IMG/VR virus record: IMGVR_UViG_3300032080_000001 | Coordinates: 1-64,000 of that record | Length of the DNA: 64,000 nt | From: a virus | Strand: one strand, 5' to 3' | Shown: piece by piece, positions 155 to 58,876 of the stretch | Numbering within the stretch: the stretch's first letter is position 1 | How the letters are laid out: each line of letters starts with the position of its first letter | Notes under the pieces: generated by a model | Databases searched by the model: none | Told to the model about the DNA's origin: nothing | What the model saw: only the letters and a program-made list of their open reading frames with translations | Made by a program: the position numbers and the translations under genes

Positions 155-213
155 CGTCGTACCGGTATATTACTGGTAGCCAACACAGTAGACTCAAGTC
201 GAAAGGACGCCCC

Positions 214-510
214 GTGTCGCTCCCGACCATCAACATCCTCACCGAGGTCAAGCACCTGATGCCCGACTCGCTCATGGTGCTGCGCGTCGGCAACCCCGGT
301 TCCTTGGACCCCGCTCAGATGCAGGCGCACCTCGTCCGCGTCCGCGATGCCGTCCGTGGCGCCCAGGAGAATGGGGACTTTCCGCAGGGGAAGTTCGTAA
401 TCATGCGGGACGACATCACCCTCGACGTACTGCCGGAGAAGCTGATGAACGACCTTGGGTGGTACCGTCAGTCGGACGCCGCCTGCCTAACCCCGAACCA
501 GACCCCGTAA
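214..510 (+). CDS. hypothetical protein
   Basis: ORF 40..510; GTG at 214 follows GAAAGGA and lies downstream of the hairpin/promoter, so the start was moved. Confidence 0.6.
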   Translation: MSLPTINILTEVKHLMPDSLMVLRVGNPGSLDPAQMQAHLVRVRDAVRGAQENGDFPQGKFVIMRDDITLDVLPEKLMNDLGWYRQSDAACLTPNQTP

Positions 511-513
511 AAC

Positions 514-1182
514 ATGGCGTTCGAGAAGCTGCGTGCCTCCCCGTGTTTCAAGGAGGCGCACGACAAGTTGGAAGCGGGTATCGCGGCCGAGAAGGTGGCC
601 GCCTGGGCGCAAGACGAGCGGAACTGCTACGACGGCATCAAGCGGGACTCCCTCGTCCGGGCGCTTTACCGCTACAAGAAGAGCGAGGTCCCCGTGACGG
701 CGGCGCAGATCGTCGCCTCAGCAGACCCGCATACCGGGAAGCCCGCGCTCACCGTCTGGAATCGTATCCAGGGCATGGAGCGCGGGCTGAACGAGCTGGA
801 GGAGCTGGAGAAGCTCTACATCCTCCAGCTCACGCGCATCAACCGAGGTGTGACCATCGAGGAGACCATCAACTTCACGAACAAGGATGTACGACGGGAC
901 GTGGAGTTGGCGAAGGACATCCTCACCACGATGACCGAACTCAAGATGAAGCTCGGCGTCTACAAGCAGGCCGACCACAACCTCAACATCACGGCGAGCG
1001 TCCAGAGTACGCACCACCAAGTCATCGAGAGTCTCGACCCCAGCTCTCGGAAGCAGTTGGGAGGGGTAGCCCGGACACTTCTGGAGCAGCTTACGAAGGC
1101 GCTGCCGCCCGCCGCTATTCCGGAAGGGATTCCGGCTGGGGGCAAGGTGGTGGAGGCGGACTACGAGCTGGTGGAGAAGTAG
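514..1182 (+). CDS. putative terminase small subunit
   Basis: 222-aa helical/coiled-coil protein upstream of the large terminase; call is mostly positional. Confidence 0.5.
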   Translation: MAFEKLRASPCFKEAHDKLEAGIAAEKVAAWAQDERNCYDGIKRDSLVRALYRYKKSEVPVTAAQIVASADPHTGKPALTVWNRIQGMERGLNELEELEKLYILQLTRINRGVTIEETINFTNKDVRRDVELAKDILTTMTELKMKLGVYKQADHNLNITASVQSTHHQVIESLDPSSRKQLGGVARTLLEQLTKALPPAAIPEGIPAGGKVVEADYELVEK

Positions 1183-1310
1183 TCCCAAAACTCGCGGGGT
1201 AAGGCCAAACTTCTCCCGCGCTGGCGGGAGTGATCGACCCCGTGCCCGCAGGGCCGGGTGATCGCGGCCAGCGGGAACCTCAAACGCCTGCGGGAGCAGC
1301 GGCGTCTCGT

Positions 1311-1564
1311 TGTTGTTTAGTACCTGTAGATTGATAGTATAGTACCTATATATTAAGCGGGCCTTGGCAACTCTCGCTGACCCGAAAGTAAAGTTGTCCT
1401 AACTACCGTCGTAGCGAAGGTTTACGTGAGTTTCGGTGAACAGAACGACCTGGCCGGAAAATCGGCCACCTCCCGATGACCTGGCCGGAAAATCGGCCAG
1501 GAAGAAAAACCGAAAGGGCCGGAAAATCGGCCACCTCCGACGCACCCGGCCGGGAGACCGGCCA
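1311..1564. other. candidate replication origin (AT-rich tract plus four 18-bp palindromic iterons)
   Basis: AT-rich 1311-1356; TGGCCGGAAAATCGGCCA-type repeats at 1451, 1482, 1516 and 1547; same motif occurs inside the initiator gene. Confidence 0.55.
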
Positions 1565-1584
1565 CCCCACAGGAACGACGACCG

Positions 1585-2091
1585 ATGGACAACACGCCGC
1601 GTATTTATCTCGGAGGCCCGATTCACGGCCTCACCCAGGACCAGGCAAACGGCTGGAGGCAGCAGGCCGCTCACCTCCTCGCCCCGGAGTTCGGGGTGCT
1701 CGACCCGATGGAGAACAAAGTCATCATCGGTACCGACTACTCGCACTACACCGACGAAGAGCTGGTCGTGAAGGACCTGCTCTCCATCCAGCGTGCACGG
1801 GCGGTGCTGCGCTACACGCCCGGCCCCACGCACGGGTCGGACATGGAGACTTTCTTCGCCTCCCACAACCACGGCATTCCCGTCGTGACCTGGGGCCCCG
1901 GCCAGGGCGACCGCAGCAAGTTGTCGCTGTGGCTTCGGCGGTTCACCGTCAAGAACTTCGAGACCCTCGAAGAGGCTGTGGCCTACCTCAAGGGGTACTG
2001 GACGTACCCCGGCGACGGCCTGGCCTCAGTACCCGTCATCGACCACCAGAATCTCGACCTGTTTCGCCCCGTACACCGCCTTGCGGCCTAA
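1585..2091 (+). CDS. nucleoside 2-deoxyribosyltransferase / nucleotide N-glycosidase-like protein
   Basis: IYLGGPI...WR...LDP...D...GSDME pattern of the NDT/RCL family. Confidence 0.75.
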   Translation: MDNTPRIYLGGPIHGLTQDQANGWRQQAAHLLAPEFGVLDPMENKVIIGTDYSHYTDEELVVKDLLSIQRARAVLRYTPGPTHGSDMETFFASHNHGIPVVTWGPGQGDRSKLSLWLRRFTVKNFETLEEAVAYLKGYWTYPGDGLASVPVIDHQNLDLFRPVHRLAA

Positions 2092-2106
2092 TCTGGAGAC
2101 ACGCAC

Positions 2107-2451
2107 ATGCCCCGTGGAGTGAAGAAGAAGGACCCGAACGCCCCGCTGCCGAGCACGCCCGAGGAGGCGCTGGCGGGCACCCCCACCGAGGACAAGGCCG
2201 AGGTGGCGCGCATCCTGGAGGCGAACGCCGCGCTCCAGGCGGAGCTGGCCGAGGCCAAGAAGGGAAGTGCTCACGCTGCCGCGCCCTCGGGTGCCGAGAC
2301 GCCTTCGTCCCATCCGGACGAGGAGGCGCTGGCTCCGTCTCTACAGGCCGTGATGGAGCGTATCCGCGCGTTCGGCCGCGACGGCTACCTGGGCCACCTG
2401 CGCGTGGCCGAGGCGGACCTGCGCCGCGTCATCGTGGACCTGTCCCGCTGA
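2107..2451 (+). CDS. hypothetical protein
   Basis: ATG after GGAGA; typical high-GC3 codon use. Confidence 0.65.
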   Translation: MPRGVKKKDPNAPLPSTPEEALAGTPTEDKAEVARILEANAALQAELAEAKKGSAHAAAPSGAETPSSHPDEEALAPSLQAVMERIRAFGRDGYLGHLRVAEADLRRVIVDLSR

Positions 2452-2551
2452 CGCGTGGGAGGATACCGGTACTTGACCAGTACGGTCCGTACCGGTATCT
2501 TACTCGTACGACGAGACACGACTACTACCCCTACGACGACCGGAAGACACG

Positions 2552-2971
2552 ATGCACCGAGACACCCAGCGCGCGCTCGCCCTCATCAACAACCAGGGCA
2601 TCACGGAGCAGATGGCGAAGCGCCTCAACAGCCCCGTGCTGTACCGCGACCTGCCGAAGCAGCTCGCCGCCGCGAACGAGCCCGTGCGCCGGATGGTTTC
2701 GGCCATCGCCACGAACCTGACGCGCACCGACCTGTCGGTCGCCGCCTTCGTGGAGCTTCTCATCGAGAAGGGCGTGTTCACCCAGGACGAGTTCAACAAC
2801 AAGGAGGTCGAGGTGACGCAGCGCTTCGCGGAGGCCATGAGCCTCGCCCAGGAGCAGGCACAGGAGGAGGCCGGGGACAAGAAGGTCGAGCGCCTCGTGG
2901 AGCCCGTGGGGGTGCTGACCGAGGCGCCGGAGTCCGAGAGTGTCCCCCGGAGCCGCCTCGTGGAGGGATGA
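2552..2971 (+). CDS. hypothetical protein
   Basis: clean ORF following a TACCGGTA-containing gap. Confidence 0.65.
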   Translation: MHRDTQRALALINNQGITEQMAKRLNSPVLYRDLPKQLAAANEPVRRMVSAIATNLTRTDLSVAAFVELLIEKGVFTQDEFNNKEVEVTQRFAEAMSLAQEQAQEEAGDKKVERLVEPVGVLTEAPESESVPRSRLVEG

Positions 2972-3165
2972 TGCACTCTGCGATGGTCTATGTCGTGGGT
3001 GTGCTCCACGACACCACCTGGACCGTCGAGGGCGTCTACACGGACCCGAGAGAGGCCGAGGGCATGTGCCTGACGGCCTCTCACTTCGTTGGCCCGGTGT
3101 CGCTGAACACGCCGCTCCCCGAGAGCGTGCACGACTGGCCCGACCTGCTCTTCCCCGTTCCGTGA
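2968..3165 (+). CDS. small hypothetical protein
   Basis: ATGA overlap with the previous gene, GGAGG upstream; C-terminal part of ORF 2455..3165. Confidence 0.55.
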   Translation: MMHSAMVYVVGVLHDTTWTVEGVYTDPREAEGMCLTASHFVGPVSLNTPLPESVHDWPDLLFPVP

Positions 3166-3166
3166 C

Positions 3167-5212
3167 ATGACCCTCGACAGGCAGCTGGTAGGGCTACTGG
3201 ATGAGTTGCGCCGGAAGCTCGACCCCGTGGCACAGAAGCACCTCGAAGACCTCGTCAAGTTGACCTCCGGCCAGCCTGACGAGCTTTTGGCGTTGCTCCG
3301 AGACCTGGCGTCGTTCGACTTCAAGTGGACGCCGGTGGGCATGGAGGAATTCGTCCTCTCGCCGGAGTACATGGGGCTCGACGGCACGCGTGGTCGCATC
3401 TTCCCCCGCCTGCTGGACGACCTCATCGAGTTGTTCGAGGACCCTCTCGGCTACGAGCAGGCTGTGATGATGGGCGGCATCGGGTGGGGCAAGTCCACGC
3501 TCTCCGAAGTTGCCCTCTCCCGGATGGTTTACGAGACCTCCTGCCTTGTGAACCCACAGAAGGCGTACGGCCTCATGGACGGGTCCACCATCGCGTTCAT
3601 CAACGCGTCGGTGAACTTGAAGCAGGCCGAGAAGGTGGTGTTCGAGGGTCTCAAGAACAAGCTCGGCGCCAGTCCTTACTTCAAGGAAAAATTTCCCTTC
3701 GAGAAGGACCTCAAGAAGGAGATGCGCTTCCCCGGTAACCTGCTCATCATGCCTGTGGCGGGCTCGGAGCAGGGCACCGTAGGGTACAACGTGCTCGGCG
3801 GTGTACTGGACGAGGTGAACTTCTGGCAGATTACCGAGAAGTCGAAGCAGAACCGGGGACAGGAGTTCGACCAGGCGCGGCACGTCTACGACATGCTCAT
3901 CCGCCGTATGCAGTCCCGCTTCAACGTGGCCGGTAAGCTGCCCGGCGTGCTGCTCCAGGTCTCGTCGTCTAAATACCCGGACGATTTTACCGAGGAGCGT
4001 GCGCGTGAGGTGGAGCAGGCGATGGCCGACCACCTTGCGGACCCGAAGACGAACGCGCACCCGAAGACGCTGGTGCGCCGGTACTCGACGTGGTCCACGA
4101 AGGACCGCGCGGTGTTCCTGCCCGAGGAGTTCTACCTGTACCGGGGCACGACTTCCGACAAGCCCGCCATCTCCACGAATCGCGATGACTTCGCGGACAA
4201 GGACCCGGAGATGGTGGTGCCGGTGCCGATGGACTTCTACGCGTCATTCAAGCAGGACATCCTCGGGTCACTGCGCGACCTGGGGGGGTTCCCGACGCTC
4301 TCCATTGCCCCGTTCTTCACACAGAAGGACCGGCTGATGGAGGCCATTGAGCGCGGGCGGCGAGCGGGGTTGGTGCACCCGTATACGCTGGATGAGACGA
4401 CGCTCGAAGACGGCGCGTACTTTCTTCGAGAGCGCGTTAAGTTCGACCCGACGAAGTGGTACTACGCGCACGTGGACTTGGCGCTGACGAAGGACCGGGC
4501 GGGCGTGGCCGTCGCCCACGTCGCCGGGTGGAAGGAAGTGCAGCGCGTACGAAACAACGTGCTGGTGACGGAGATGGAACCCATCGTTGTGGTGGACTTC
4601 ATGCTCCGCATCACGCCGCCGGAGCAGGGCGAAATCCAAGTGGCCGAGGTGCGTGCGCTGCTCCTCGAACTGCGCTCGTACGGCTGCAACCTGCGTAAGG
4701 TCACGTACGACCAGTACCAGTCAGCCGAGTCGCGCCAGGCGTTCGAGCGCATGGGCATCGAATCCGACAAGTTCTCGGTCGATACCACGATGGACGCGTA
4801 CCACGCGCTGGCCGAGGCCATCCTGGAGGGTCGCCTCGTCATGTATGATTACGCGCCGTTCGTGGAGGAGTTCGTTCGGCTGGAGAGGAAGACGACCGGG
4901 CGGGGCGAGAAGGTGGACCACCCGCCGAAGGGCTCGAAGGACGTGTCCGATGCCGCTGCGGGTGCCGTCTATCACGCCACGATGGCGCGCCACACCGCGC
5001 AGTTGGACCCGAGCCTGGGCGAGACGACAGACTCCCCGGTGGTGGCTGGCGTGACGCTGTGGGCAACGAAGGACGGACGCACCCTCGAACCCACCGTGGA
5101 CACGGCGGGTCGGCTGCTCCCCGGTAAGAAGCTCCGCACGTTGGACGACGTGATGTGGGGCGAGGTGGCGGAGGATGAGGGGGACGAGGACTTCGTCGTT
5201 GGCTTTGCTTGA
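3167..5212 (+). CDS. terL: terminase large subunit
   Basis: Walker A GIGWGKST, Walker B GVLDE, nuclease motifs HVDLA, YDQYQS and KDVSDA; directly before the portal. Confidence 0.9.
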   Translation: MTLDRQLVGLLDELRRKLDPVAQKHLEDLVKLTSGQPDELLALLRDLASFDFKWTPVGMEEFVLSPEYMGLDGTRGRIFPRLLDDLIELFEDPLGYEQAVMMGGIGWGKSTLSEVALSRMVYETSCLVNPQKAYGLMDGSTIAFINASVNLKQAEKVVFEGLKNKLGASPYFKEKFPFEKDLKKEMRFPGNLLIMPVAGSEQGTVGYNVLGGVLDEVNFWQITEKSKQNRGQEFDQARHVYDMLIRRMQSRFNVAGKLPGVLLQVSSSKYPDDFTEERAREVEQAMADHLADPKTNAHPKTLVRRYSTWSTKDRAVFLPEEFYLYRGTTSDKPAISTNRDDFADKDPEMVVPVPMDFYASFKQDILGSLRDLGGFPTLSIAPFFTQKDRLMEAIERGRRAGLVHPYTLDETTLEDGAYFLRERVKFDPTKWYYAHVDLALTKDRAGVAVAHVAGWKEVQRVRNNVLVTEMEPIVVVDFMLRITPPEQGEIQVAEVRALLLELRSYGCNLRKVTYDQYQSAESRQAFERMGIESDKFSVDTTMDAYHALAEAILEGRLVMYDYAPFVEEFVRLERKTTGRGEKVDHPPKGSKDVSDAAAGAVYHATMARHTAQLDPSLGETTDSPVVAGVTLWATKDGRTLEPTVDTAGRLLPGKKLRTLDDVMWGEVAEDEGDEDFVVGFA

Positions 5213-5231
5213 CCGTACCGGTAGCCTACCG

Positions 5232-5260
5232 TTGCGCTACCGGTTGAGTCTGCTTATCTT
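5232..5260 (+). promoter_or_regulatory. promoter TTGCGC-17-TATCTT with phased TACCGG boxes
   Basis: boxes at 5216, 5227 and 5238 (11-bp period). Confidence 0.55.
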
Positions 5261-5293
5261 TACCGGACTCGGAACCCGAACGATGGAACGCCT

Positions 5294-6853
5294 GTGAACC
5301 TCATTCTGGAGAATCTCCTTGACCGCGTAACGTCGCGCTGGCGCGTGGCGAACCCGGTCGTGCCCGCGAGCCAGACCACCGAGGTCCGGCCCGAGGGCGA
5401 CGACCTGGAGAAGGACCTCCCGCTCGGGTTCGACAACGGGGCGTGGGGCTACTACGTCAGGATGATGAAGCTCGTCCGGTCGCGCCGGGAGCTGTACGCG
5501 ACCTACGACGAGATGGACGAGGAACTCCCCGAGTTCTCTTCGGCCATGAACATCTACGCCGACAATGCCACGCGCGGTGACTCGGACGGGTCCGTGCGGC
5601 TCACGCTCAAGAGCGAAGACGCGCGCGTACAGAAAATCCTCACCGACACGCGCGACCTCCTGCGGCTGGAGGACAAGCTCTGGCCGCTGGCGCGCGACCT
5701 GGCGAAGTACGGCGAGCGGGCGGTCGAGAACATCGTTCACGAGGACACGTTCGACATCATCCGCCTCAAGCCGCTGCCGACCTCGCACATCATCGAGCGG
5801 TACGACGAGTACGGGCGCCCGATGGACCCACCCTTCGCCCAGCTGGACGACAAGGGCGAGCAGGTGGCGACGTTCGAGGACTGGCAGGTCATCTACTTCG
5901 CCAACAAGAAGAGCCTCTCGGACACCTTCGGTACCAGCCTCGCGCGCGCGGCCATCCGCGCGTGGCAGCAGTTGCGGATGATGGAGGACGCCGTCGTGAT
6001 CGCCCGGCTGACTCGGGCGCACAACCGTCTGGCGTACCTGGTGGACACCGGCTCCCTCACCCCGCAGGAGGCGCAGAAGCACCTCCAGAAGGTGAAGGCC
6101 CATCTCTCGAAGCGCCGCACCATCGACCCGAAGACCGGGAAGATGGACACGTCCTACAACCCCATGCAGGTTGAGGCGGACGTGTTCGTGGCGACGAACA
6201 AGGAGTCGAAGGCTGACGTGAAGGTGCTCCAGGGCGACCTGACGGTCGGCAACCTGGCGGACCTGGAGTACTTCCAGCAGAAAATCTTCACCGCGCTCCA
6301 GGTACCGAAGCCGTACCTGGCTCACGAGAAGGACACGCGGACGAAGAGCGTCGTCACCGCGCAGGACATCCAGTTCGCGCGGTCGGTGCGGCGCATCCAG
6401 CAGGTGATGGCCGAGGGGCTGCGCAAGCTGTTCGACTTCGCCCTCCTGCTCAAGGGCATCAACCCGAGGAAGGTGCAGTATACCATCGGGTTCCCTGTCA
6501 TCAGCATCGTGGACGACCTGCGCGTGTGGCAGACCGAGCAGTTGAAGATGCTCGTCGCGCAGATGATGAAGCAGAACTTCTGGCCTTCCGACGAGTGGAT
6601 TTTCATCCATCTACTCGGGTACGACAGCGACGAGGCCAAGCTGGTGCTGCGCGACCAAAAGAAGCCCGACGAGTTCAACGGGCTGTACCAGGCGCCCAAG
6701 GTGGGCGCAACCGCCAACAATGCGAAGACCGGCGAGACGGAATCGGTGGAGTTCGCGGCGCGGTTGGCCGCGCTGGACGAGGGCCAGCGCGAGCAGGTGG
6801 CCGAGGCCATCGAGACGCTGCGGCTCATCACTGACTGGAAGCTGGCTGCGTAA
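5294..6853 (+). CDS. portal protein (T4 gp20-like)
   Basis: QLRMMEDAVVIARLTRA...YLVDTGSL and DLEYFQQKIFTALQVP resemble T4 gp20-family motifs. Confidence 0.9.
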   Translation: MNLILENLLDRVTSRWRVANPVVPASQTTEVRPEGDDLEKDLPLGFDNGAWGYYVRMMKLVRSRRELYATYDEMDEELPEFSSAMNIYADNATRGDSDGSVRLTLKSEDARVQKILTDTRDLLRLEDKLWPLARDLAKYGERAVENIVHEDTFDIIRLKPLPTSHIIERYDEYGRPMDPPFAQLDDKGEQVATFEDWQVIYFANKKSLSDTFGTSLARAAIRAWQQLRMMEDAVVIARLTRAHNRLAYLVDTGSLTPQEAQKHLQKVKAHLSKRRTIDPKTGKMDTSYNPMQVEADVFVATNKESKADVKVLQGDLTVGNLADLEYFQQKIFTALQVPKPYLAHEKDTRTKSVVTAQDIQFARSVRRIQQVMAEGLRKLFDFALLLKGINPRKVQYTIGFPVISIVDDLRVWQTEQLKMLVAQMMKQNFWPSDEWIFIHLLGYDSDEAKLVLRDQKKPDEFNGLYQAPKVGATANNAKTGETESVEFAARLAALDEGQREQVAEAIETLRLITDWKLAA

Positions 6854-6864
6854 GAAAGGGACTC

Positions 6865-8418: not shown

Positions 8419-8422
8419 CCCC

Positions 8423-8496
8423 TTGCGCGTCGATTCTTATACCGGTAGATTACTCTTAGAGTACCCTTGACAGGTTCGTACGAAGTCGTGTAACTT
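8423..8496 (+). promoter_or_regulatory. tandem promoters of the head operon
   Basis: TTGCGC(8423)-17-TAGATT(8446) and TTGACA(8467)-18-TAACTT(8491); contains TACCGGTA (8440) and TTCGTACGAA (8475). Confidence 0.6.
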
Positions 8497-8546
8497 TGTC
8501 GAGGGCTACCGGTACAGTACCCACACCCTACCGGCTGGAGACGGAC

Positions 8547-9875: not shown

Positions 9876-9945
9876 GTGCCCTTTCCACGTCCCTGGCTAC
9901 CGGTAACGTACCGGTAGCCGCAAACTCTCAGGAGAAGCACACGAC

Positions 9946-11280: not shown

Positions 11281-11314
11281 GCGTACCTGGCGCTACCGGT
11301 ACGCTGAGGTTAGA

Positions 11315-11348
11315 TTACGGGGGCGGGGGATTCCCCTCGCTCCCGTAA
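11315..11348 (+). terminator. hairpin after the major capsid gene
   Basis: TTACGGGGGCGGGG...CCCCTCGCTCCCGTAA inverted repeat. Confidence 0.6.
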
Positions 11349-11385
11349 TCGTTCAGCCTGGACTCTCAACCACCGAACCAAACCA

Positions 11386-11598: not shown

Positions 11599-11619
11599 CC
11601 CACCAGAAGGAGCTACCCT

Positions 11620-12303: not shown

Positions 12304-12312
12304 GGAGCGCGG

Positions 12313-14020: not shown

Positions 14021-14127
14021 GCCGGGTCTTGTCTTGCGCGTTCATACGCGGTATATTACCCTTAGTGTACCAGTAGCTTACCGGCCGGGTGCGGTGCCGC
14101 CGGGCCAACCGACGAAAAGGAAATCTG

Positions 14128-14388: not shown

Positions 14389-14415
14389 GCGGCACGCCGC
14401 CGAGAGGAGAACCGT

Positions 14416-14727: not shown

Positions 14728-14745
14728 GCTGGAGACCAAGCACAC

Positions 14746-16296: not shown

Positions 16297-16387
16297 GCCT
16301 CATCATCTGCGGTCGCGCCCGTAGTGCGCCGGTGAGTACCGGTACACTACGGGTCCGTCCGATTCACCCACAGGAGCACACGAGAGC

Positions 16388-16943: not shown

Positions 16944-17024
16944 CGTTTGGCACCCCGTCACTGTTATCTTACCGGTACAGTACAGGCACACTACTACGCA
17001 ACCTGAGTGGAGAACGGATACGCG

Positions 17025-22920: not shown

Positions 22921-23217
22921 ATGGCGTTTTCTTCGACATCCCGCTACCGGTACAGTACCCTCATTCAGACCGGGGCCGACGTGTTCTACGGGCCTCGCGG
23001 GCGCTTCTCGACGGCGCCGTCCGTGGACGACGCGTACTACACCGTGCGCGCCGAGGACGACCTGACCCGCGTGGCGGCCCGGATGCTGGGTGATGCCCGC
23101 TATTGGTGGGTGGTGGCAGACTTCAACGACATCGTGGACCCCTTCACCTCGCTGGTGGAGGGGGCGGAGCTTCGCGTGCCGTCCAGGCGGCGGCTGTTCA
23201 TGGAGGTGTTGCGCTAA
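22921..23217 (+). CDS. LysM / gpX-like baseplate protein
   Basis: YTVRAEDDLTRVAARMLGDARYWWVVADFN..DP...G..LRVP. Confidence 0.8.
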   Translation: MAFSSTSRYRYSTLIQTGADVFYGPRGRFSTAPSVDDAYYTVRAEDDLTRVAARMLGDARYWWVVADFNDIVDPFTSLVEGAELRVPSRRRLFMEVLR

Positions 23218-27400: not shown

Positions 27401-27473
27401 CCCCGGTTGACCGGTGGCCCCAAGACCGCTATTCTTGAGGCTACCGGTACACTACCATTACCTTGGACGCAGC

Positions 27474-30701: not shown

Positions 30702-30755
30702 CGTATCTTACAGGTAAGCTACAGGTACTGTACCCCTCAGCACACGGCGACTACG

Positions 30756-33911: not shown

Positions 33912-33945
33912 TCTTTCGTCCCTCGCTACCGGTAGAGTAACGGTA

Positions 33946-37863: not shown

Positions 37864-37933
37864 GCAGCACCGTGCGCCGCCCGACATCAGGGCGGCGCCC
37901 TTCTTCATCACCAGCTACAGGTAAGTTACCGGT

Positions 37934-38518
37934 ATGCAGGATATTACGGCACTCAAGGCACTCATTCCGGCCCTGGCGGGCCTTCCGGCGCGCCCGAAGC
38001 GCGTCGTGCTTCACTGGACGGGCGGCGGTCCCACGGCCAACGACATCGACAAGGCGCACTACCACTTCATCGTCAACCGCGATGGCACGGTGGTGCGGGG
38101 AGCGCACACGGTCGCGCAGAACATGAAGCAGTTGTCCGCGCGCGACAGCTACGCCGGGCACACCGGCGGCTTCAACAGCTTCTCCATCGGCGTCTCGTTC
38201 GCGGGGATGGCGGACTCGGGGCCGGTGACGGCGAAGCACCCGAAGGGGGTGTTCGGGCCGTACCCACTGACCGAGGCGCAGGTGCGGGCGGGCCTCATCT
38301 TCGTGGCGCTACTCTGCAAGACCTACGGGCTCGACCCGAAGAACGTGAACCATGTCTTCACCCACTACGAGGCGTGGACGGTGCACAAGGTCAAGGGGCA
38401 GATGAACGACCAGAAGTTCGACATCACCATGCTCCAGTTCATGCCGTCGCTGGGCAAGGACCAGGTCGGGCCCTGGCTGCGGGAGAACGCCGCGCTGCAC
38501 CTCAAAGAGCTTGCGTAG
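37934..38518 (+). CDS. endolysin, N-acetylmuramoyl-L-alanine amidase
   Basis: VVLHWTGG, YHFIV..DG, HT...NS.SIGV and TH...D Amidase_2 motifs. Confidence 0.85.
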   Translation: MQDITALKALIPALAGLPARPKRVVLHWTGGGPTANDIDKAHYHFIVNRDGTVVRGAHTVAQNMKQLSARDSYAGHTGGFNSFSIGVSFAGMADSGPVTAKHPKGVFGPYPLTEAQVRAGLIFVALLCKTYGLDPKNVNHVFTHYEAWTVHKVKGQMNDQKFDITMLQFMPSLGKDQVGPWLRENAALHLKELA

Positions 38519-38635
38519 GGCTTGCGCTACCGGTAGTATACCGGTAGATTTGAGGCGCTTTCTGTAGTGCGACCCCGGCCGGTGCGGGGGTCAGACGGCT
38601 CCGTGCTTTCTACCCCCGACTCGGCTAACTTTTCA

Positions 38636-39712: not shown

Positions 39713-39955
39713 ATGGCTCGCACAAACCTTGACGCAACTTCGGTTTACCACAACGCCGCGCAGGGCGAGGCGCTCAAGAAGGCGGCGGCGCTGGAGAACC
39801 GGAGCGTATCGAACTTCCTGCTGAACCTCGGCATCCAGAAGGCCGCCGAGATGGGCATTCCGGTCTTCAACGTGAGCGCGGTGGAGGAGCCGGAGACCCG
39901 GCCGCGCAAGCTGGCGGTCGGTGGCGGGGGCAAGAATCGGCGGTCTCGGCGTTAA
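39713..39955 (+). CDS. ribbon-helix-helix-like DNA-binding protein
   Basis: ALKKAAALENRSVSNFLL pattern (DUF1778/Arc-like); strong Shine-Dalgarno. Confidence 0.65.
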   Translation: MARTNLDATSVYHNAAQGEALKKAAALENRSVSNFLLNLGIQKAAEMGIPVFNVSAVEEPETRPRKLAVGGGGKNRRSRR

Positions 39956-40007: not shown

Positions 40008-41249
40008 GTGGCGCAAGCTGCACTTTCGGTCGGGGTGTCCAACCGAGACACCCCGGCTGACGCCACGTACCAGGCGTTCTTTGGTACGCGGTCCGGGCCG
40101 TTCGTCCCGATGTTGTCAGGGCTGCTCCGCGCACTTGGAGCAGCTTCTCTTTCGGACGGCGCTACCGGTACACTACTGTTATTGTACAGTGAGTACGTCC
40201 CGATGTCGCTCCGGAACGGGCACCTCGGGGACGATGGCTGGGTGATGGTGTGGCCGTCAAAGGAGCGGCTGGCCGAGGAGACGGGGAGGCGGCGCTCGAC
40301 GGTGAAGGAGCACCTTGCGGCGCTCGAAGCCCTCGGGGCTATCCGCCGCTCCAGAGAGCGGGTGAACGGACGCACGGGGGTGCTGTGGGTGCGCCCCACC
40401 CCCGCCCTCCTCGCGCACCTGGAGGCGAGGCCGGAGGTGCAGGCCACCCTGCGTCAGCGATTCAAGAGGCGCTACGACCCGCAGGTGACGCCCATCGAGT
40501 CGAGGTTCTTCCTGGCCGAAAATTCGGCCAGCACCTGGCCGGAAAACCGGCCACAACGGAAGAGTACTACGACCGAAGAAGAAGTAAACAGCAACACGCC
40601 GCAGGGGCGCCGCGCAGAGGACCGGACGCCGCTGGCGGAAATGGCCTGGCCGGAGGGCTGGGACGAGGGGCGGTTCGCCCGCTGGTTCGAGTACACGCAT
40701 GACGAAACGGTAGCCGACGTGAAGAGCATCTACGCGAGAATGGCCGAACTGCGGCAGACGCAGGACGCGGCCGAGGACGAGAGCGCCGAGGCCCGCGAAA
40801 AGCGGTTGGCGAAGCCGAAGTCGCAGCGGATGAACGGGGGCAGGAAGCAGGCGCCCAAGGTCGCGCGCACCGACACAGCGTCCGCTCTGATGCGGGACTT
40901 TAAGGCGCTGGTCACGACGAACTTCCCCAACGCGTACAACCCGCCGAACGACGTGAAGGCGCTTTCGCAGATGCGCATGCTCCTCGACCGGTACGGCGAG
41001 GCCGAGGTCCGGCGGCTCATGGAGTTCGTCGCTGACCCGACAACGTGGGGGCGTATCAAGACCAAGTGGCCGAAAATCGAGCTGTTTCAGCCCACTCCTG
41101 GTTGGCTGCTGGCCTGGAGCGAGTCGCTACTCCAGTGGATGAAGAGCGGCGCCCCCGATGCGGGGCAGGCTACCGGTCCGAAGCGCAGCGGCGGAGCCGA
41201 GGTTTACGACCGCGCTACGACCGACGCGAAGGGTCGCTCGACGTTCTGA
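40008..41249 (+). CDS. HTH replication initiator protein
   Basis: WPSKERLAEETGRRRSTVKEHLAALEALGAI winged HTH; internal iterons; upstream of DnaC/DnaB. Confidence 0.72.
   Translation: MAQAALSVGVSNRDTPADATYQAFFGTRSGPFVPMLSGLLRALGAASLSDGATGTLLLLYSEYVPMSLRNGHLGDDGWVMVWPSKERLAEETGRRRSTVKEHLAALEALGAIRRSRERVNGRTGVLWVRPTPALLAHLEARPEVQATLRQRFKRRYDPQVTPIESRFFLAENSASTWPENRPQRKSTTTEEEVNSNTPQGRRAEDRTPLAEMAWPEGWDEGRFARWFEYTHDETVADVKSIYARMAELRQTQDAAEDESAEAREKRLAKPKSQRMNGGRKQAPKVARTDTASALMRDFKALVTTNFPNAYNPPNDVKALSQMRMLLDRYGEAEVRRLMEFVADPTTWGRIKTKWPKIELFQPTPGWLLAWSESLLQWMKSGAPDAGQATGPKRSGGAEVYDRATTDAKGRSTF
40513..40553. repeat. two palindromic iterons within the initiator gene
   Basis: TGGCCGAAAATTCGGCCA (40513) and TGGCCGGAAAACCGGCCA (40536). 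Confidence 0.75.
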
Positions 41250-41293
41250 CCAGCTACCGGTGCTCTACACGCAGAGCACCGGCGCTTGACCCC

Positions 41294-45237: not shown

Positions 45238-46331
45238 ACGCGGACAGCATCGTCTATGTACTGGAGGAGCTGGGCTCCCCGCGCGTGAAGAACCTCGGCA
45301 AGAACGTGCAGGCGTCCTGTCCGCTGGCTCCGTGGAACCACGGGTCGGGGAGTGACGCCTCCATGAAGCTCGGCGTGCTCGTCACGCAGGGGATGAGCCC
45401 GGCGAACTGCTTCTACCCCGGCTGCTTCCACGGCACGCTGCTGGAGTTGGTGGACGCCGTCGCGACGAAGAAAATCACAGACGGAGACTGGGAACTCGGC
45501 GGCGACGAGGTCTCTAACCTCAAGGCATTCGTAATGCTCGCGGAGGAGACCGACGAGGTGGACCTCTCCGGCGGTCGCGGCGCGGCCGTCGTGGAGCCCA
45601 TCCCACAGGACGTACTCGCCCTGGTCGGCGGCGGCTCCCCCTACTGGACGGAGCGGGGCGTCGGCCTGGTGACGGCGGACTTGTGGAAGCTCGGGGAGGG
45701 GAAGGGCCGTGCGTTCATCCCGCTCATCGACCGTCAGGGACAGGTCGTCGCCGTGAAGGGCCGCCTGCTGCCGGGCGAGGAGTACGACGAAATGCCCGGC
45801 ACGGGGAAGGCGCGCTCGGCCAAGTACCGGCTCTTCCCGGCGAGCTTCCCCTCCGGCGACTACCTTGTCGGGGAGCACCTGCTCACGAAGCCGGTGGACT
45901 TCCTGGTGGTTGTGGAGTCGGAGGCGGACGCCATCCTGCTGAACGAGTGGTTCCTCGACCCTGCGTTCCGTGACGCGTTCCCGTTCGGGCAGGCCACGGA
46001 CGGTGCGCTCGCGGTGTCCACGGCGGGCGGCGAGTTCACTGCGCGGCAGGTGCAGAAGATGGTCGAGGCCCTGACGGCGCAGGGTGAGGTCGCGGTCGGC
46101 ATGGACGCCGACCACGCTGGGCGACTCGCCACGCGGAAACTGGTGGACGCGCTGCGGAAGCGTGTACCCCGTGTGTCGGAAATCGAGTGGGAGCGGAAGG
46201 ACCCGTCCGATGACGACGACGGGAACGGCGGGAAGCTCTCCCGCGATGTGGTCAAGGCTGACGCGCGGCGGTCCATCGAGACGCGCATGGACTGGTTCCA
46301 GAAACGCATCACCGCCGCGCTCCGTACTTGA
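45234..46331 (+). CDS. DNA primase (zinc finger + TOPRIM)
   Basis: CPL..WNH...CF.PGC zinc finger; VVESEADA and MDADHAG TOPRIM motifs. Confidence 0.82.
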   Translation: MNADSIVYVLEELGSPRVKNLGKNVQASCPLAPWNHGSGSDASMKLGVLVTQGMSPANCFYPGCFHGTLLELVDAVATKKITDGDWELGGDEVSNLKAFVMLAEETDEVDLSGGRGAAVVEPIPQDVLALVGGGSPYWTERGVGLVTADLWKLGEGKGRAFIPLIDRQGQVVAVKGRLLPGEEYDEMPGTGKARSAKYRLFPASFPSGDYLVGEHLLTKPVDFLVVVESEADAILLNEWFLDPAFRDAFPFGQATDGALAVSTAGGEFTARQVQKMVEALTAQGEVAVGMDADHAGRLATRKLVDALRKRVPRVSEIEWERKDPSDDDDGNGGKLSRDVVKADARRSIETRMDWFQKRITAALRT

Positions 46332-46356
46332 CAAACCGGTAGCATACCGGTACATT
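46328..46356 (+). promoter_or_regulatory. promoter whose spacer is filled by two ACCGGTA boxes
   Basis: TTGACA-AACCGGTAGCATACCGG-TACATT. Confidence 0.7.
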
Positions 46357-46436
46357 CCCGGTGTCTGAGCAAAGGCCAGACATCGAGCAACCCAACAGAG
46401 TGACCGCTACGGCACTCACACAGGAGACAACACCGT

Positions 46437-47215: not shown

Positions 47216-47282
47216 AGGCCCCTTGACAAGTGCTGGTGTAACGTACCCACTACGGGTACTACACCCTTACGAACGGTAAACG

Positions 47283-52869: not shown

Positions 52870-53513
52870 CCGCACCTGCCGTAAGTCTTAACCTGTACGA
52901 ACAGAGCGTTCTTCAAGACCTCGACCTGACAGCTTCCGAACTGGAGAGCCTACTCTCCCGGATGGACAAGGACGTGGTCGGGGAGTCGCTACCGATGAGT
53001 ACGGCGGCCATAGCGGACGCGTACCGTCACGCGCACTACGCGGAGAAGTACGCCAGCGAAGCGAAGGGCCGCATTCGAGTCGAATTGCTCGCCCGGCTGG
53101 GCGCAGGGAAAGAGGACGCGAAGGGCACGGTCGCCTTTCAAGGTTCTACGGCCCGCATCGAGGCTCGACCCCGTACGGCCGCAAAGATGGACGAGGCCGC
53201 GATGACGGCCCTGCTCCAGACGAGGGGGCTGTACGACGAGGCGACCGACGAGACCGTGGCGGTGAACGTGGCTGGGCTCCTCGACGCCATGAGGATGGTG
53301 ACGGACTTCCTCGATAGTAAGGGTCTGGACACGGCGGCGCGGATGCTGAACAACGCGCTCACCGCGAACCTGACCATCACGAAGACCGTCAACGAGAAGA
53401 AGGTGGAGAAGCTCGCTAAGGCGGGCAAGTTGGACCCTCAAGAGGCGGCGGCGTGCTACACGACGACCACCACCTATGCTCTGTACGATGTGACGCAAGG
53501 CTCAACCCCATGA
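52866..53513 (+). CDS. hypothetical protein
   Basis: coupled ORF, helical. Confidence 0.6.
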   Translation: MTAPAVSLNLYEQSVLQDLDLTASELESLLSRMDKDVVGESLPMSTAAIADAYRHAHYAEKYASEAKGRIRVELLARLGAGKEDAKGTVAFQGSTARIEARPRTAAKMDEAAMTALLQTRGLYDEATDETVAVNVAGLLDAMRMVTDFLDSKGLDTAARMLNNALTANLTITKTVNEKKVEKLAKAGKLDPQEAAACYTTTTTYALYDVTQGSTP

Positions 53514-54127
53514 CCCCCCTGACTATGACCCCACGAAAGCGCAAGAAGTCCGAGCGGGAGCTTGCGCGTAACATCGAGTACCAGAAGGAGTACTACGCCG
53601 CCAACCGCGACGAACTCCTCAAGAAGAAGAAGGAGCGGTACCAGGGTGACCCCGAGTACCGGCGCGGCATCAAGGTGCGGGCAAAGCGCAAGCGGTGGCT
53701 GGAGGAGAGGCCGGAACAGAAGGAGTTCCCGCCCTTCGGTATCCTGGCCGAGCTGGAGCCGAAGGGCTCCATCGAGGTGAAGGTGAAGGACCGCCACGAC
53801 GCCCGCCACGGTCAGACCGTCTCGGTGCCCGTCTTCTCGACCGGCGCGGTGGCCGAGCTGCTCGGCCGGGCGCCGGAGGTGCTTCGCCTCTGGTGGAAGC
53901 GCAAGCAGATTCCCGAGCCGTACCACCGGGGTTCGATGGTCCCGGAGAACATGGTGAAGGGGCGCAACCCGCGCCTGTTCACTCTGGACGAGATGCGGGC
54001 CATCGACAACGTGAAGGAGATGCTCAACCTCCCCAGCCGGGGGAGCAGCCACGCGCTGTTCTCGGACAGGCTGACGGAGGAGTTCGAGAAGATGGACCAG
54101 GGTCTCTACCAGGTCCCGAACGCGTAA
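53510..54127 (+). CDS. MerR-type HTH DNA-binding protein
   Basis: FSTGAVAELLGRAPEVLRLW...IP.P...R.FTLDE; basic N-terminus. Confidence 0.7.
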   Translation: MTPLTMTPRKRKKSERELARNIEYQKEYYAANRDELLKKKKERYQGDPEYRRGIKVRAKRKRWLEERPEQKEFPPFGILAELEPKGSIEVKVKDRHDARHGQTVSVPVFSTGAVAELLGRAPEVLRLWWKRKQIPEPYHRGSMVPENMVKGRNPRLFTLDEMRAIDNVKEMLNLPSRGSSHALFSDRLTEEFEKMDQGLYQVPNA

Positions 54128-54188: not shown

Positions 54189-54226
54189 TTGACAAGTGCC
54201 GGTGCTACGCCTATACTCTACCGGTA
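54189..54226 (+). promoter_or_regulatory. promoter of the recA operon with TACCGGTA at the start site
   Basis: TTGACA-17-TATACT, then TACCGGTA at 54219. Confidence 0.7.
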
Positions 54227-57187: not shown

Positions 57188-57242
57188 GCACCCCGCGCGA
57201 GGCGGCGGCAGCGGTGTTCTACCTGGACTTCAACTACACGGG

Positions 57243-57446
57243 ATGATGAGCAACGGACTACGCATCGAGGTGCGCTACGGCAAGAACGAGCTGTGGCCGA
57301 GTGGCGCGCAGAAGGCCCGCGCACTGCGGGGCATTCAGGAGTTCGCGGAAGCCCTCGACCTGGGTGCCGTGACGATGGACGCGGACCAGGAGGAGCAGGA
57401 ATACCTCCTTCTCTTTACCGCAGGAGACCAGCCGGAGCACGCCTGA
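57243..57446 (+). CDS. hypothetical protein
   Basis: short coupled ORF. Confidence 0.5.
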   Translation: MMSNGLRIEVRYGKNELWPSGAQKARALRGIQEFAEALDLGAVTMDADQEEQEYLLLFTAGDQPEHA

Positions 57447-57841
57447 TGAAGCGGCTCAAGAACGGCACCACCATTGAGGTGACGGAGCGGTCGGGGCAGG
57501 TGCGACAAATCGGTCACGTGCAGGGAGAAACGTTCGTGGCGTTCCGGCGGGACGAGGAGCGCCACCTCTTCCGGGGAGGCTCGGAGACCGCGCAGGACGC
57601 GAGGGAGAACGGCACGGCGGCGTGGGGCTTGGACCTGTCCGCGATGCGGCAGTTGCACGAGAACCACGGCATCCAGTACGTCGAAATCCCGACCGCGCGC
57701 GGCACGTACCGCGCGAAGATGGAGACGGTCATCGGTCCGAAGAGCTTCCAGAAGGAGTTCAGCGGACACCGAGTGCAAACGTTTCTGCCGCTGGGGTACT
57801 GGACGCTGACGCGCGGGGACGCGCGAAAGAAGAGCGCATGA
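57446..57841 (+). CDS. hypothetical protein
   Basis: TGATG coupling; normal codon bias. Confidence 0.6.
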   Translation: MKRLKNGTTIEVTERSGQVRQIGHVQGETFVAFRRDEERHLFRGGSETAQDARENGTAAWGLDLSAMRQLHENHGIQYVEIPTARGTYRAKMETVIGPKSFQKEFSGHRVQTFLPLGYWTLTRGDARKKSA

Positions 57842-58026
57842 ACGAGGCGGTCGCGGACTACTGGTTCGAGAACTACATCGACAAGCACTGCACCCTCTGC
57901 GGCAACAGCGGCGTCATTGACACGACCGGCGTGACTACGGCCGCCGGGGTGCCGGTCGGTCGTAAGAACTACTGCGGTTGCCCGAACGGGCAGCAGAAGC
58001 GCGCACTCAAGGCCAGCATCGTATGA
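57838..58026 (+). CDS. small zinc-finger protein
   Basis: CTLC...CGC motifs. Confidence 0.55.
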   Translation: MNEAVADYWFENYIDKHCTLCGNSGVIDTTGVTTAAGVPVGRKNYCGCPNGQQKRALKASIV

Positions 58027-58262
58027 ACGGCATCATCTACATCACGGCCGAGGAACACTCAGGGCACCCGCTCAACATCGAGCATACGCACACCAAGCCG
58101 CCGGTCATTCGGGAAGACGACGACACCGGAGCGGGCGGCATCGTCCTCCCACTCGCGGTGGCCCAGGAGGCGAAGGTGACGTGCGTCGTCTGCGGCGTGC
58201 GCCTCATCGAAGGTGAGGACTACGTGGTCCAGGAAGACGAGGTGGAGCCGTGGCGAACCTGA
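58023..58262 (+). CDS. hypothetical protein
   Basis: ATGA overlap; CVVC motif. Confidence 0.5.
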   Translation: MNGIIYITAEEHSGHPLNIEHTHTKPPVIREDDDTGAGGIVLPLAVAQEAKVTCVVCGVRLIEGEDYVVQEDEVEPWRT

Positions 58263-58435
58263 ACATTACGGCGCGCGGGCACCATAATCACCGGCTGTAC
58301 CTCTCGCTGCCGACTACCCTGGCGCCCGTAGCCGTGACCGGAACGGTACACTGGGACGTATGGTGTGCCACTTGCGGGGTGTTCTTGCCCGAGACGGAGT
58401 ACGACGCGGAGGTGGCGCGTGCCCCTCGGGAGTAG
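58250..58435 (+). CDS. hypothetical protein
   Basis: GGAG Shine-Dalgarno; CATC motif. Confidence 0.45.
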   Translation: MANLNITARGHHNHRLYLSLPTTLAPVAVTGTVHWDVWCATCGVFLPETEYDAEVARAPRE

Positions 58436-58844
58436 GCGGGAGCCGCGCTTCCTGGGCGAGGACCCGAACGAGCGGCGCAAGAAAGGCTTCACCCGACACG
58501 AGAAGAAGCTCGCCAAGGACCTCGGGGGCGTCACGACGGTCGGGTCCGGCAACAAGGGTATGAAGGGCGACGTACACGGCGGCGACCGGGACGCAGGGCA
58601 GCGCATCATGGCTGAGGCCAAGAGCACCCAGGCCCGCCAGATCGCGCTCAAGCTGGACTGGCTGGAGAAGTTGGTCAACGAGGCGTTCGACGCGAGAATG
58701 GAGCCCGCGCTGTTCCTGCGGTTCGACAGCCTGGGCTCGTCCAACTATCAGGACTGGGCGGTCATCCCGAAGAACCGCTACCTGGAGTTGCTCGAACAGG
58801 AGGCCAGCCAGCGCCGCGCCTCCGGCTCTTCGCACGAACCCTAG
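58419..58844 (+). CDS. PD-(D/E)XK nuclease, putative Holliday junction resolvase
   Basis: E...A...GSG...KGD...EAKST motifs. Confidence 0.7.
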   Translation: MPLGSRREPRFLGEDPNERRKKGFTRHEKKLAKDLGGVTTVGSGNKGMKGDVHGGDRDAGQRIMAEAKSTQARQIALKLDWLEKLVNEAFDARMEPALFLRFDSLGSSNYQDWAVIPKNRYLELLEQEASQRRASGSSHEP

Positions 58845-58876
58845 TACCGGTAGAGTACCGGCTCCGCCATGCGGGG

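Follow-up and report, generated by a model that had tools for sequence, protein, structure and literature searches.

The window analysed here, 64 kb in length, is the first part of a 123,873-bp uncultured phage genome (IMG/VR record IMGVR_UViG_3300032080_000001, here G000; G+C 65%) and carries 21 perfect copies of an 8-bp box, TACCGGTA, nearly all of them between genes. It is very probable that the box is a genuine, functional regulatory site bound by a protein at promoters. The reading that we favour, with a probability of roughly 0.45, is that it is an operator embedded in promoters and recognised by an oligomerising DNA-binding protein of the phage, with repression through occlusion as the likelier mode of action. 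Protein binding, its repressive effect and the identity of the binder are what we infer; most likely, one DNA-binding protein switches nearly all late genes together.

Number and placement of the boxes

The initial annotation, made by eye, counted 21 perfect boxes in the window against a rough expectation of less than one. All of these coordinates are confirmed, and 100 dinucleotide-preserving shuffles of the window give a mean of 0.30 copies (maximum 2). The k-mer count against a Markov background, which had been suggested as a check, yields 38 copies in the whole genome compared with 1.95 expected from an order-2 model. Among all 8-mers, the only ones ranked higher than TACCGGTA are TTGACA-containing words that belong to a second promoter family of 41 copies (see below).

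Thirty-six of the 38 boxes are non-coding (20 of 21 in the window) in a genome of which 21.7% is non-coding (P for at least 36 of 38 = 6e-22). The first gene call, made from third-position G+C (GC3), gave 35 of 38. The box at 27442 was reassigned as non-coding since the gene that follows it truly starts at a conserved ATG, 27482; with this correction the strong intergenic placement noticed initially stands, while its count of 19 out of 21 becomes 20. The box at 40163 is truly intragenic: it lies in the gene of a replication initiator whose N-terminus is conserved in a relative. The next start codon lies anywhere between -1 and more than 100 nt from a box. A position matrix reveals no conservation outside about -17 to +23, so that the box does not belong to a longer repeat or a mobile element.

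The literature matches listed for the 8-mer (supplementary files are outside such a search) contain no description of it in a context of phage regulation. One Streptomyces phage paper does contain it, as a chance occurrence inside a list of predicted promoters. A broader literature search on palindromic motifs of actinophages returned nothing useful.

A palindromic unit repeated every 11 bp

TACCGGTA is a perfect palindrome, both halves of which are constrained: TACCGG is found at 80 sites (55 non-coding) and CCGGTA at 78 (49 non-coding). The 38 perfect copies compare with 53 one-mismatch variants distributed over 21 types.

The 11-bp phasing along one face of the helix, a central claim of the initial annotation, is real. 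A partner matching the box in at least 6 of 8 positions stands at +11 from 22 of the 38 genome sites (13 of 21 in the window) and at -11 from only five, of which four are in the window and three are reciprocal perfect pairs. Every other offset from 8 to 44 accounts for 0-3 sites. The asymmetry between +11 and -11 implies that each site is made of a strong box followed by a weaker one, pointing along the coding strand, and all composite sites are indeed aligned with transcription on the single coding strand of this phage. As the box itself is palindromic, the asymmetry comes solely from the weaker downstream partner. All the pairs listed initially are present, with 0-2 mismatches. A T at +11, which together with the final TA of the box completes a TAnnnT hexamer, occurs at 29 of 38 sites in the genome and at 17 of 21 in the window, in line with the early remark that this TA often begins such a hexamer.

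Most arrays consist of a strong and a weak unit, and some have a third (triples at 5216 and 40163); three pairs are perfect in both units (9898, 38528 and 123735). The suggestion of a protein polymerising along the helix does not fit such short arrays, which are far from long polymers.

Register with the promoter

The boxes are in register with promoter elements. The trinucleotide TTG is found 17 bp before the terminal TA of the box at 9 of 38 sites and 28 bp before it at 7 of 38, other offsets being represented 0-3 times. If a stringent promoter is defined by a -35 element starting with TTG and matching in at least 4 of 6 positions, a spacer of 16-18 bp and a TAnnnT hexamer, 15 of the 38 boxes overlap one, as against 155 of 2000 control non-coding positions. 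Within these 15, the -10 begins at box+6 in seven cases (so that the TA of the -10 comes from the box), at box-5 in four (the box begins with the last T of the -10) and at box+17 in one (the box directly follows the -35). In the remaining three the box begins 1, 6 or 10 nt past the -10. Hence, in 12 of the 15 sites with a recognisable -35, the box occupies the spacer, the -10 or the transcription start in 11-bp register. Two box positions meet in the -10 hexamer, and any of three slots can be taken by a perfect box.

Two sites have an 18-bp spacer and the others one of 17 bp; a typical pair of boxes extends from about -18 to +1. The -35 elements of TTGCGC type (8423, 38522 and 64316) fall outside the stringent definition and keep the same register. 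The four examples of a 17-bp spacer filled by boxes (5232, 8423, 38522 and 46328) are exactly as initially described. The usual pair is centred on the -10 rather than on the spacer, over which a protein was initially pictured as lying.

Boxes at or after the start site of complete promoters are found at 27442, 54219, 97710 and 112162. Complete TTGACA promoters with a box on or just past the -10 are those at 54189, 97681 and 112133, and at 29320 in the relative. The start codons at 33946 and 37934 lie exactly 6-7 nt past a box-derived -10, a geometry that is consistent with leaderless mRNAs, although two cases are anecdotal. A generic promoter and terminator scan of positions 1-20000 was uninformative.

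Strong hairpins (-22 kcal/mol or lower) occur within the 70 nt upstream of 9 of 38 boxes, 10 of 41 TTGACA promoters and 31 of 300 random positions. This excess suggests that the boxes sit where transcription restarts. It is confined to the strong tail, since the mean hairpin energy 5' of the boxes barely differs from that of random positions (-18.2 vs -16.0, sd 4.3).

Conservation in related phages

Relatives are known as fragments only. The larger one, a 31.5-kb contig (G001; G+C 68%), was found by scanning IMG/VR for two boxes 11 bp apart. It is syntenic with phage genes 14-43, with amino-acid identities of 30-63%, or roughly 50%, and contains 17 perfect boxes where 0.37 are expected, the reversed control pattern being absent (0 copies). 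Nine of these 17 boxes have a +11 partner and 13 a T at +11. When the upstream regions of the 24 shared genes are scored for a box with at most one mismatch, 11 have it in both phages, 10 in neither, two in the relative only and one in our phage only (Fisher P = 6e-4). The promoter and box at 27407-27449 recur in the same arrangement in the relative, while the proteins are only ~63% identical. The second fragment, a 1.7-kb metagenome piece (G+C 59%), has two boxes upstream of genes and encodes a sheath N-terminus that is 62% identical. That the exact 8-mer is kept at the same junctions while the flanking proteins have diverged by half is strong evidence for a function. Together, enrichment, placement and the conserved junctions support the phage-wide regulon of promoter-associated sites that the initial annotation had proposed.

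No close relatives were detected in the phage collection by megablast, and the tblastn matches of the terminase and sheath are all below 40% identity. IMG/VR scans with the sheath and with the 547-aa gene at 27999 yielded the 31.5-kb contig as the only true relative, and the metagenome scan yielded the 1.7-kb fragment alone. Scans of representative bacterial genomes gave no prophage relatives; as they used two patterns of 7-8 residues each, they are weak as a sign of absence.

A proposed promoter-embedded operator

In the operator model, the units recur every 11 bp on one helix face, and the TA of one box, the 3-bp gap and the T of the next spell a -10 of the TAnnnT type used by a housekeeping sigma. 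At the usual site a perfect box would cover about -18 to -11 and a weaker one about -7 to +1. A phage protein would bind the perfect box as a dimer or a head-to-tail oligomer and spread cooperatively onto the weaker box, so that the -10 and the start site would be covered and RNA polymerase kept out. About 36 transcription units would thus be held off and released together, among them every recognisable structural and lysis operon, recA, nucleotide-metabolism genes and the integrase operon. Because the phage looks temperate (see below), silencing in lysogeny or in early infection would be the likely purpose.

A perfect palindrome that is constrained in both halves and recurs once per helical turn argues for an oligomerising protein that binds duplex DNA, and not for a -10 element read as a single strand by sigma. 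The presence of the box in the spacer, the -10 or the start site, in 11-bp steps, speaks for an occluding repressor rather than for an element making fixed contacts with the polymerase. The boxes located at or after the start of complete promoters favour occlusion over remodelling of the spacer.

Several points weigh against this model. A recognisable -35 is missing at 23 of the 38 boxes, so that a repressor would require -10-only promoters for the most highly expressed genes of the phage; such promoters are plausible in Gram-positive hosts of high G+C. The classical role of a motif found in front of all late operons of a large phage is that of a positive promoter element. The box is missing from about 35 of the 41 TTGACA promoters, which means that the box protein alone could not silence a prophage. 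Two of the candidate repressors discussed below (53510 and 39713) are placed behind TTGACA-family promoters, presumed early, and a repressor made early needs an unexplained release step. Finally, the gene calls are our own rough ones, based on GC3.

Two promoter families and a possible positive element

The second promoter family has the consensus cCCTTGACAA-N7-TGACCC(G/T)(A/T)T-TAnnTT, with a 17-bp spacer, and its words are the most over-represented in the genome. Its members in the window are at 39265, 41294, 44934, 46328, 47223, 51403, 54189, 61509 and 8467, and 32 more lie beyond it. Of the 41 copies, 32 are in the right arm, eight in the replication block and one in the structural/lysis module. 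The 38 boxes are divided 17/4/17 between left, middle and right, the first 17 being those of the structural/lysis module, where the box is the sole recurrent motif in front of operons. The conserved 9-bp block just 5' of the -10 in the TTGACA family is foreign to a normal housekeeping promoter; a second operator and an extended element for recognition are both conceivable.

This division is an argument for a different interpretation, in which the box acts positively, as an element of late or middle promoters: TACCGGTAnnnT would be a promoter of the extended -10 type that lacks a -35, either read by host polymerase carrying a phage sigma-like or sigma-appropriating factor or switched on by an activator bound to the back face, with boxes late and TTGACA promoters early. 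We regard this main rival as possible, though less probable than an operator. It would match the late promoters of T4 or SPO1. It accounts for the 17 of 38 boxes, as opposed to one of 41 TTGACA promoters, in the structural/lysis module, for the 32 of 41 TTGACA promoters in the right arm and for the lack of any other recurrent motif before late operons. The composite always points along transcription, with a T at +11 in 29 of 38 sites; 23 boxes do without a -35; and the two start codons mentioned above stand where a leaderless start 6-7 nt past a -10 is expected. However, neither palindromy nor a repeated unit is expected of a sigma -10, and the slot varies (box+6, box-5, box+17 and after the -10), the box even lying over the start site at 27442 and 54219. 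The genome also appears to lack a gene for a sigma factor or RNA polymerase, a weak objection given that divergent phage sigmas often escape profile searches. Sigma70 region 2 (Sigma70_r2) and the T7-type RNA_pol profile find no match in the genome, the RNA_pol search being without a positive control, and no sigma factor is among the 25 of 33 PHROG families listed for 74 small proteins. Sigma70_r4_2 gives a sub-threshold match inside a 517-aa gene of the structural module.

The replication initiator and other possible explanations

The intragenic box at 40163 raises the question of whether the site belongs to the replication initiator (40008-41249), acting as a DnaA-like global regulator that couples late transcription to replication. 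One of only two intragenic boxes, it is part of a phased triple (40163-40195) in the initiator gene itself, and the triple is spelled with uncommon leucine codons (CTA 2.4%, TTA 0.5% and TTG 7.7% of Leu). A phased triple, though degenerate, occupies the same codons in the 31.5-kb relative; this suggests a DNA-level constraint within this coding region, although a conserved protein motif could explain part of the similarity. The initiator is O-like/DnaD-like with an HTH_36 domain, and three boxes lie ~350-450 bp downstream of an ori-like A+T-rich stretch with five GGGTCCC copies (see below).

Further support comes from 11-bp-phased TACCGGTA arrays in the replication modules of unrelated phage contigs (G+C 34-55%), which surfaced in the IMG/VR scan for two boxes 11 bp apart (31 loci). 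Contig L024 (G+C 34%) has 13 boxes at 4223-4405, alternately 11 and 13 bp apart, inside a gene with weak DnaD_N and HTH_36 matches; the lambda ori, likewise, lies within the O gene. Four boxes at L012:9792-9854 adjoin DUF6291 and G39P-like replication genes, and five at L023:3094-3151 are between divergent genes. These arrays, two of which lie in replication modules, look like origin iterons, and a DNA-binding module with specificity for TACCGGTA may be widespread. In another group of contigs from the scan, of low G+C, the boxes are inside a coding region at the one locus inspected (L007) and look like a coincidence.

Even so, it is improbable that the initiator, like a DnaA of the phage, both binds the origin and controls access to late promoters throughout the genome. 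It has no detectable similarity to the L024 protein, whose own DnaD_N and HTH_36 matches are non-significant (E 0.04-0.1). Iterons form one dense array near or in the initiator gene; here, the conserved phased triple is indeed in that gene, but the boxes are dispersed over ~36 promoter loci. Were it true, replication would multiply the ~38 sites per genome, titrate the initiator away and free the late operons, and, through the two-box -10 joint, each late promoter would sense how many genome copies are present.

Slightly less probable still is a host transcription factor, for instance a response regulator of the OmpR/PhoB type, which binds repeats phased by 11 bp, that would read the box and tie the late genes to the state of the host. 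Units of 8 bp separated by 3-bp gaps, hence an 11-bp phasing, are the layout used by some actinobacterial response regulators, and no evidence ties any particular protein, including those of the phage, to the box. Yet the exact 8-mer is kept in three relatives with G+C contents of 59-68%, which probably have different hosts.

That the tandem acts through structure, as a cruciform or as an RNA hairpin serving for processing, stability or as a hairpin promoter, is very unlikely: a stem of 8 bp closed by a 3-nt loop is available to the pairs at 9898, 38528 and 123735, a layout formally like the 17-bp dyad repeat of Cluster O phages (PMC4351075), but 16 of 38 sites have no usable partner (fewer than 6 of 8 matches), partner mismatches are never compensated in an invariant first box, transcription from sites with a clear -35 would begin only where the second box ends, leaving the hairpin out of the transcript, and neither an N4-like nor a T7-like polymerase was found in the genome.

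Candidate binding proteins

If the operator model is right, the phage should encode the binder. The protein singled out initially, at 53510..54127 (+), has 205 aa, with an N-terminal helical region and a MerR-type winged helix-turn-helix (HTH) at about residues 108-170. The assignment to the MerR type holds: the Pfam match to MerR_1 is weak (E 0.014), the Foldseek hits are nearly all MerR-family DNA-binding domains (CarH, RacA, GlnR and BldC; all E >= 0.08), and the neighbours in the ESM Atlas are viral MerR_1 clusters. Its N-terminal part matches PHROG 19880 (phrog_19880), annotated as 'transcriptional regulator', with E 2.4e-12. In the structural model (mean pLDDT 74.6) only two short helices follow the HTH. 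Homologues are rare, with only two among 5.8 billion proteins, one of them 68% identical and encoded on a 106.7-kb contig. The protein is a reasonable candidate because MerR-type domains are known to act on phased repeats that overlap promoters.

The 80-aa product of 39713..39955 (+), also proposed initially, is a ribbon-helix-helix (RHH)-like protein, as judged from a match to TacA1 (E 2.4e-4) and a two-helix model. Its N-terminal MAR-NL-A-SVY is invariant in three homologues (41-70% identical), one of which is in the 31.5-kb relative. The third early suggestion, given there as 63214, corresponds to 63202..63423 (+) and is a plausible DNA-binding candidate, a 73-aa MarR-like winged HTH protein (E 8.8e-5). 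The promoters of these three genes have no box. A further candidate, MerR-like, is the HTH_17/Xis-like protein of 121974-122267, whose operon has a cluster of three boxes, within 115 bp, on its upstream side and a perfect pair on its downstream side. The initiator (40008..41249, +), an O-like/DnaD-like protein with an HTH_36 winged helix, is the fifth.

In a rough apportionment, the 53510 protein leads the field, tentatively. The 121974 and 39713 proteins come next, each a weaker and equal prospect, and the 63202 protein, a host factor or some other protein taken jointly amount to about as much as either of these two. The initiator is the least likely of the phage proteins named singly. The unrelated array contigs contain neither homologues of the 53510 and 39713 proteins nor MerR_1 or HTH_17 domains, save for one non-significant HTH_17 match (E 0.027).

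Comparison with known systems

In Cluster A mycobacteriophages (L5/Bxb1), a monomeric HTH repressor binds the stoperators, asymmetric sites of 13 bp most of which block elongation. They resemble the boxes in having tens of copies scattered over a temperate genome of actinophage type, most of them placed in small gaps between genes, with an orientation that follows transcription; the many oriented intergenic copies accompany an integrase and an Xis-like gene here as well. They differ in that the box is an 8-bp palindrome without the 13-bp asymmetry, arranged in 11-bp tandems and locked to the -10. No L5-type repressor was found in the phage.

RHH operators of the Arc/Mnt/MetJ kind consist of short symmetric subsites, each bound by one dimer and no more than one turn apart, and work through cooperative binding and promoter occlusion. 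The phage does encode an RHH protein conserved in relatives; those operators, however, control one or a few promoters, and the 39713 protein is only a candidate here.

The late promoters of T4 (TATAAATA, with gp55) and of SPO1 (gp33/34) are asymmetric, single, fixed in position and read by a phage sigma. Like the boxes, they repeat one short motif dozens of times at the -10, without a -35, at the head of late operons. Unlike them, the boxes are palindromic, tandem and variable in position, taking at least three slots 11 bp apart and also occurring after the -10, and no sigma has been detected. The start-associated sequences of Cluster K phages keep a fixed short distance to the start codon, which the boxes do not.

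Closest in geometry are MerR-like proteins that act on tandem repeats. BldC, a MerR-like winged-helix protein, is said to bind tandem direct repeats. CarH, through its MerR-type DNA-binding domain, occupies tandem 11-bp direct repeats on one DNA face over the -35 and -10 and represses transcription, and shares with our sites the 11-bp tandem units, the mixture of strong and weak ones and the overlap with the promoter (PMC9304148). It differs in that its unit is nnnnTnnACAn and that CarH needs a B12 domain (PMC9304148). Gp36 of phage D29, a small MerR-family mycobacteriophage protein, binds direct repeats and represses phage genes; its repeats are ~20 bp apart at few sites, compared with a palindromic 8-mer at ~38 (PMC12266134). 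The boxes thus share with this group the helical-turn phasing, the strong and weak units and the overlap with the core promoter, but the 205-aa 53510 protein has a different domain layout. Nor do the sites behave like those of classical MerR regulators, a mechanism considered initially: these place a dyad in a 19-20 bp spacer, whereas our phage has spacers of 17-18 bp and a box pair with the -10 at its centre, and instead of an N-terminal HTH followed by a coiled coil and an effector domain the 53510 protein has its HTH at residues 108-170 with two short helices after it.

The repeat of Cluster O phages, TGTTCGGNNNCCGAACA, is a 17-bp dyad present in more than 30 invariant copies, with a 3-bp gap and without orientation relative to transcription (PMC4351075). 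The two systems have in common more than 30 invariant inverted repeats with a 3-bp gap, many of them intergenic (PMC4351075). The Cluster O dyad is not reported to be fused to promoters; in our phage the arms are themselves palindromic, single arms occur, the sites are directional and they overlap TAnnnT (PMC4351075).

The box therefore differs from each system compared in at least one of the defining features tested. What is distinctive is the palindromic 8-bp unit, its strict 11-bp register with the -10 and the three slots. The timing of late genes in phages of high-G+C hosts is poorly understood, and several genome-wide repeats, such as that of Cluster O, have no known function. Here, the design is readable: two sharply defined promoter families divide a 124-kb genome, and the -10 of one of them is the joint of two palindromic units that a protein would bind. 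A compact orthogonal promoter-operator cassette could follow from it.

Sites along the window

All sites in the window are on the + strand. The first (160..178) is a box with a 1-mismatch partner, TACCGGTA tat TACTGGTA, upstream of the first gene (214); TTGACA at 142 is 18 bp before its TAtatT. Two composites, 2464/2475 and 2490/2501 (2464..2508), precede the gene at 2552, and in the second TTGACC stands 17 bp before TAtctT. The phased triple at 5216..5245, in the gap between the terminase gene and the 519-aa gene at 5294, has a perfect unit at 5216, one with two mismatches at 5227 and one with a single mismatch at 5238. At 8440..8525, the boxes 8440 and 8507 flank 8467, the sole TTGACA-family promoter of the structural module, and TTGCGC at 8423 is 17 bp before the TAgatT of the 8440 site. 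The perfect tandem pair at 9898..9916 is 29 nt 5' of a 444-aa gene (9946), and a single box, 11294..11301, follows the stop of a gene ending at 11280.

A degenerate pair with one and two mismatches (14068..14086) is found 10 nt past a promoter-like site, TTGTCT-17-TATATT; the relative has a perfect box there. A box with a weak partner (16337..16355) separates the tail sheath gene from the next, where the relative keeps two boxes. The box and partner at 16970..16988, preceded by a hairpin of -30.9 kcal/mol, and those at 22945..22963, 5' of a small gene at 23071, are both kept in the relative. At 27407..27460, TTGACC-N17-TATTCT is followed 6 nt past its -10 by the box at 27442, over the start site, with the ATG at 27482. 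A 1-mismatch pair (TACAGGTA twice, 30709..30727) lies directly 3' of a hairpin and T-run, and corresponds to a perfect box in the relative. The box and 1-mismatch partner at 33927..33945 end one base before the ATG (33946) of a gene for a 1305-aa tail protein, and the 1-mismatch and perfect boxes at 37916..37934 end with the A of the amidase ATG. In front of the holin gene, at 38522..38552, TTGCGC, two perfect boxes that fill the 17-bp spacer and TAgatT follow one another, and the relative has a perfect pair at this junction too.

Beyond the lysis genes come the triple with rare Leu codons inside the initiator gene (40163..40195) and a 1-mismatch box 5' of the ligase gene (41255..41262), where the relative has two perfect boxes. 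At 46328..46358 a 1-mismatch and a perfect box fill the 17-bp spacer between TTGACA and TAcatT, at a conserved junction. Upstream of the DNA polymerase gene, a 1-mismatch box (47251..47258) follows the TTGACA at 47223; at the same junction of the relative, a perfect box overlaps the last base of the -10. The recA gene is preceded by TTGACA-N17-TATACT with a box 1 nt past the -10 (54189..54226), and a gene for a dNMP kinase-like protein by a box with a 2-mismatch partner (58845..58863).

Genome context and other sequence features

The genome is rated 100% complete by CheckV and has direct terminal repeats according to IMG/VR. A soil metagenome, which may be the source of the sequence, is the only sequencing run found to contain DNA of this phage, and no RNA run is listed as containing it. 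A script finds the ends to be identical over 127 bp (123747-123873 = 1-127), the repeat beginning within the box at 123746. As 127 is a common assembler word size, the repeat may represent an assembly overlap of a circular or permuted genome and not true physical ends.

All 155 genes called are on the + strand, and the open reading frames of the minus strand have the composition of shadow frames. Gene content was derived from Pfam and PHROGs. The terminase (3167) and tail sheath (14746) identify the phage as a myovirus. The 519-aa gene at 5294 is a putative portal gene by its position, and the 1391-aa gene at 17988 a putative tape measure gene by its size only. The lysis genes encode an amidase (endolysin, 37934) and a holin (38567). 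The replication block comprises the O-like initiator (40008), ligase, DnaB, primase, PolA, helicase, RecA, ThyX, the dNMP kinase-like gene and a dUTPase. In the right arm, 64-124 kb, most genes are small; among its products are a class II ribonucleotide reductase, an RNA ligase, RtcB, an AAA_5/CobT-like pair, thioredoxin reductase and SpoVS.

At the end of the right arm, the HTH_17/Xis-like gene (121974) is followed by that of a tyrosine integrase (122287; Pfam E 1.9e-11). Downstream of the latter (genome 122287-123600 region) there is, by eye, a fragment resembling a tRNA 5' half, with a D-arm and a CCT anticodon loop, where Rfam finds no match. With the integrase, the Xis-like gene and this fragment, the phage looks temperate; a temperate myovirus of 124 kb, if it is one, is unusual. 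Upstream of the Xis-like/integrase operon, genome positions 120500-121200, within a 900-bp non-coding region, combine an A+T-rich stretch, five copies of GGGTCCC in 80 bp and three perfect boxes, and look like an origin or a regulatory hub.

The right arm also encodes a tmRNA (Rfam 58.9 bits; L001:13689-14087 = genome 77689-78087) and two tRNAs, Lys-CTT and Leu-CAA (L001:15596-15668 and L001:18095-18178). About 870 nt 5' of the tmRNA, at genome position 76809, is a TTGACA promoter with a box in its spacer.

The lowest G+C of the genome, 25% over 40 bp, is reached within 1316-1540, where degenerate 11-bp-phased box-like units are followed by three copies of GGCCGGAAAATCGGCC; a packaging site and a small RNA are possibilities. 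The decamer TTCGTA(A/C)GAA and its complement amount to 28 copies, in coding and non-coding DNA alike, when ~0.1-0.3 are expected per word. Eleven are the palindromic TTCGTACGAA, and the A form is present in 9 + 8 copies on the two strands (for example at 8475, 12533, 27861, 30224, 43522, 48334, 50794, 54131, 55917 and 63014 for the decamer as a whole). It may serve for modification, nicking or recognition. An iteron-like array of CAGCTTCATA, six copies in 145 bp at genome 111495-111640 out of nine genome-wide (the others at 107923, 109112 and 109130), could be an origin or a partition site. Lastly, a (TC)n microsatellite of ~12 units is located at genome 119192-119215, at the start of an open reading frame in the right arm.

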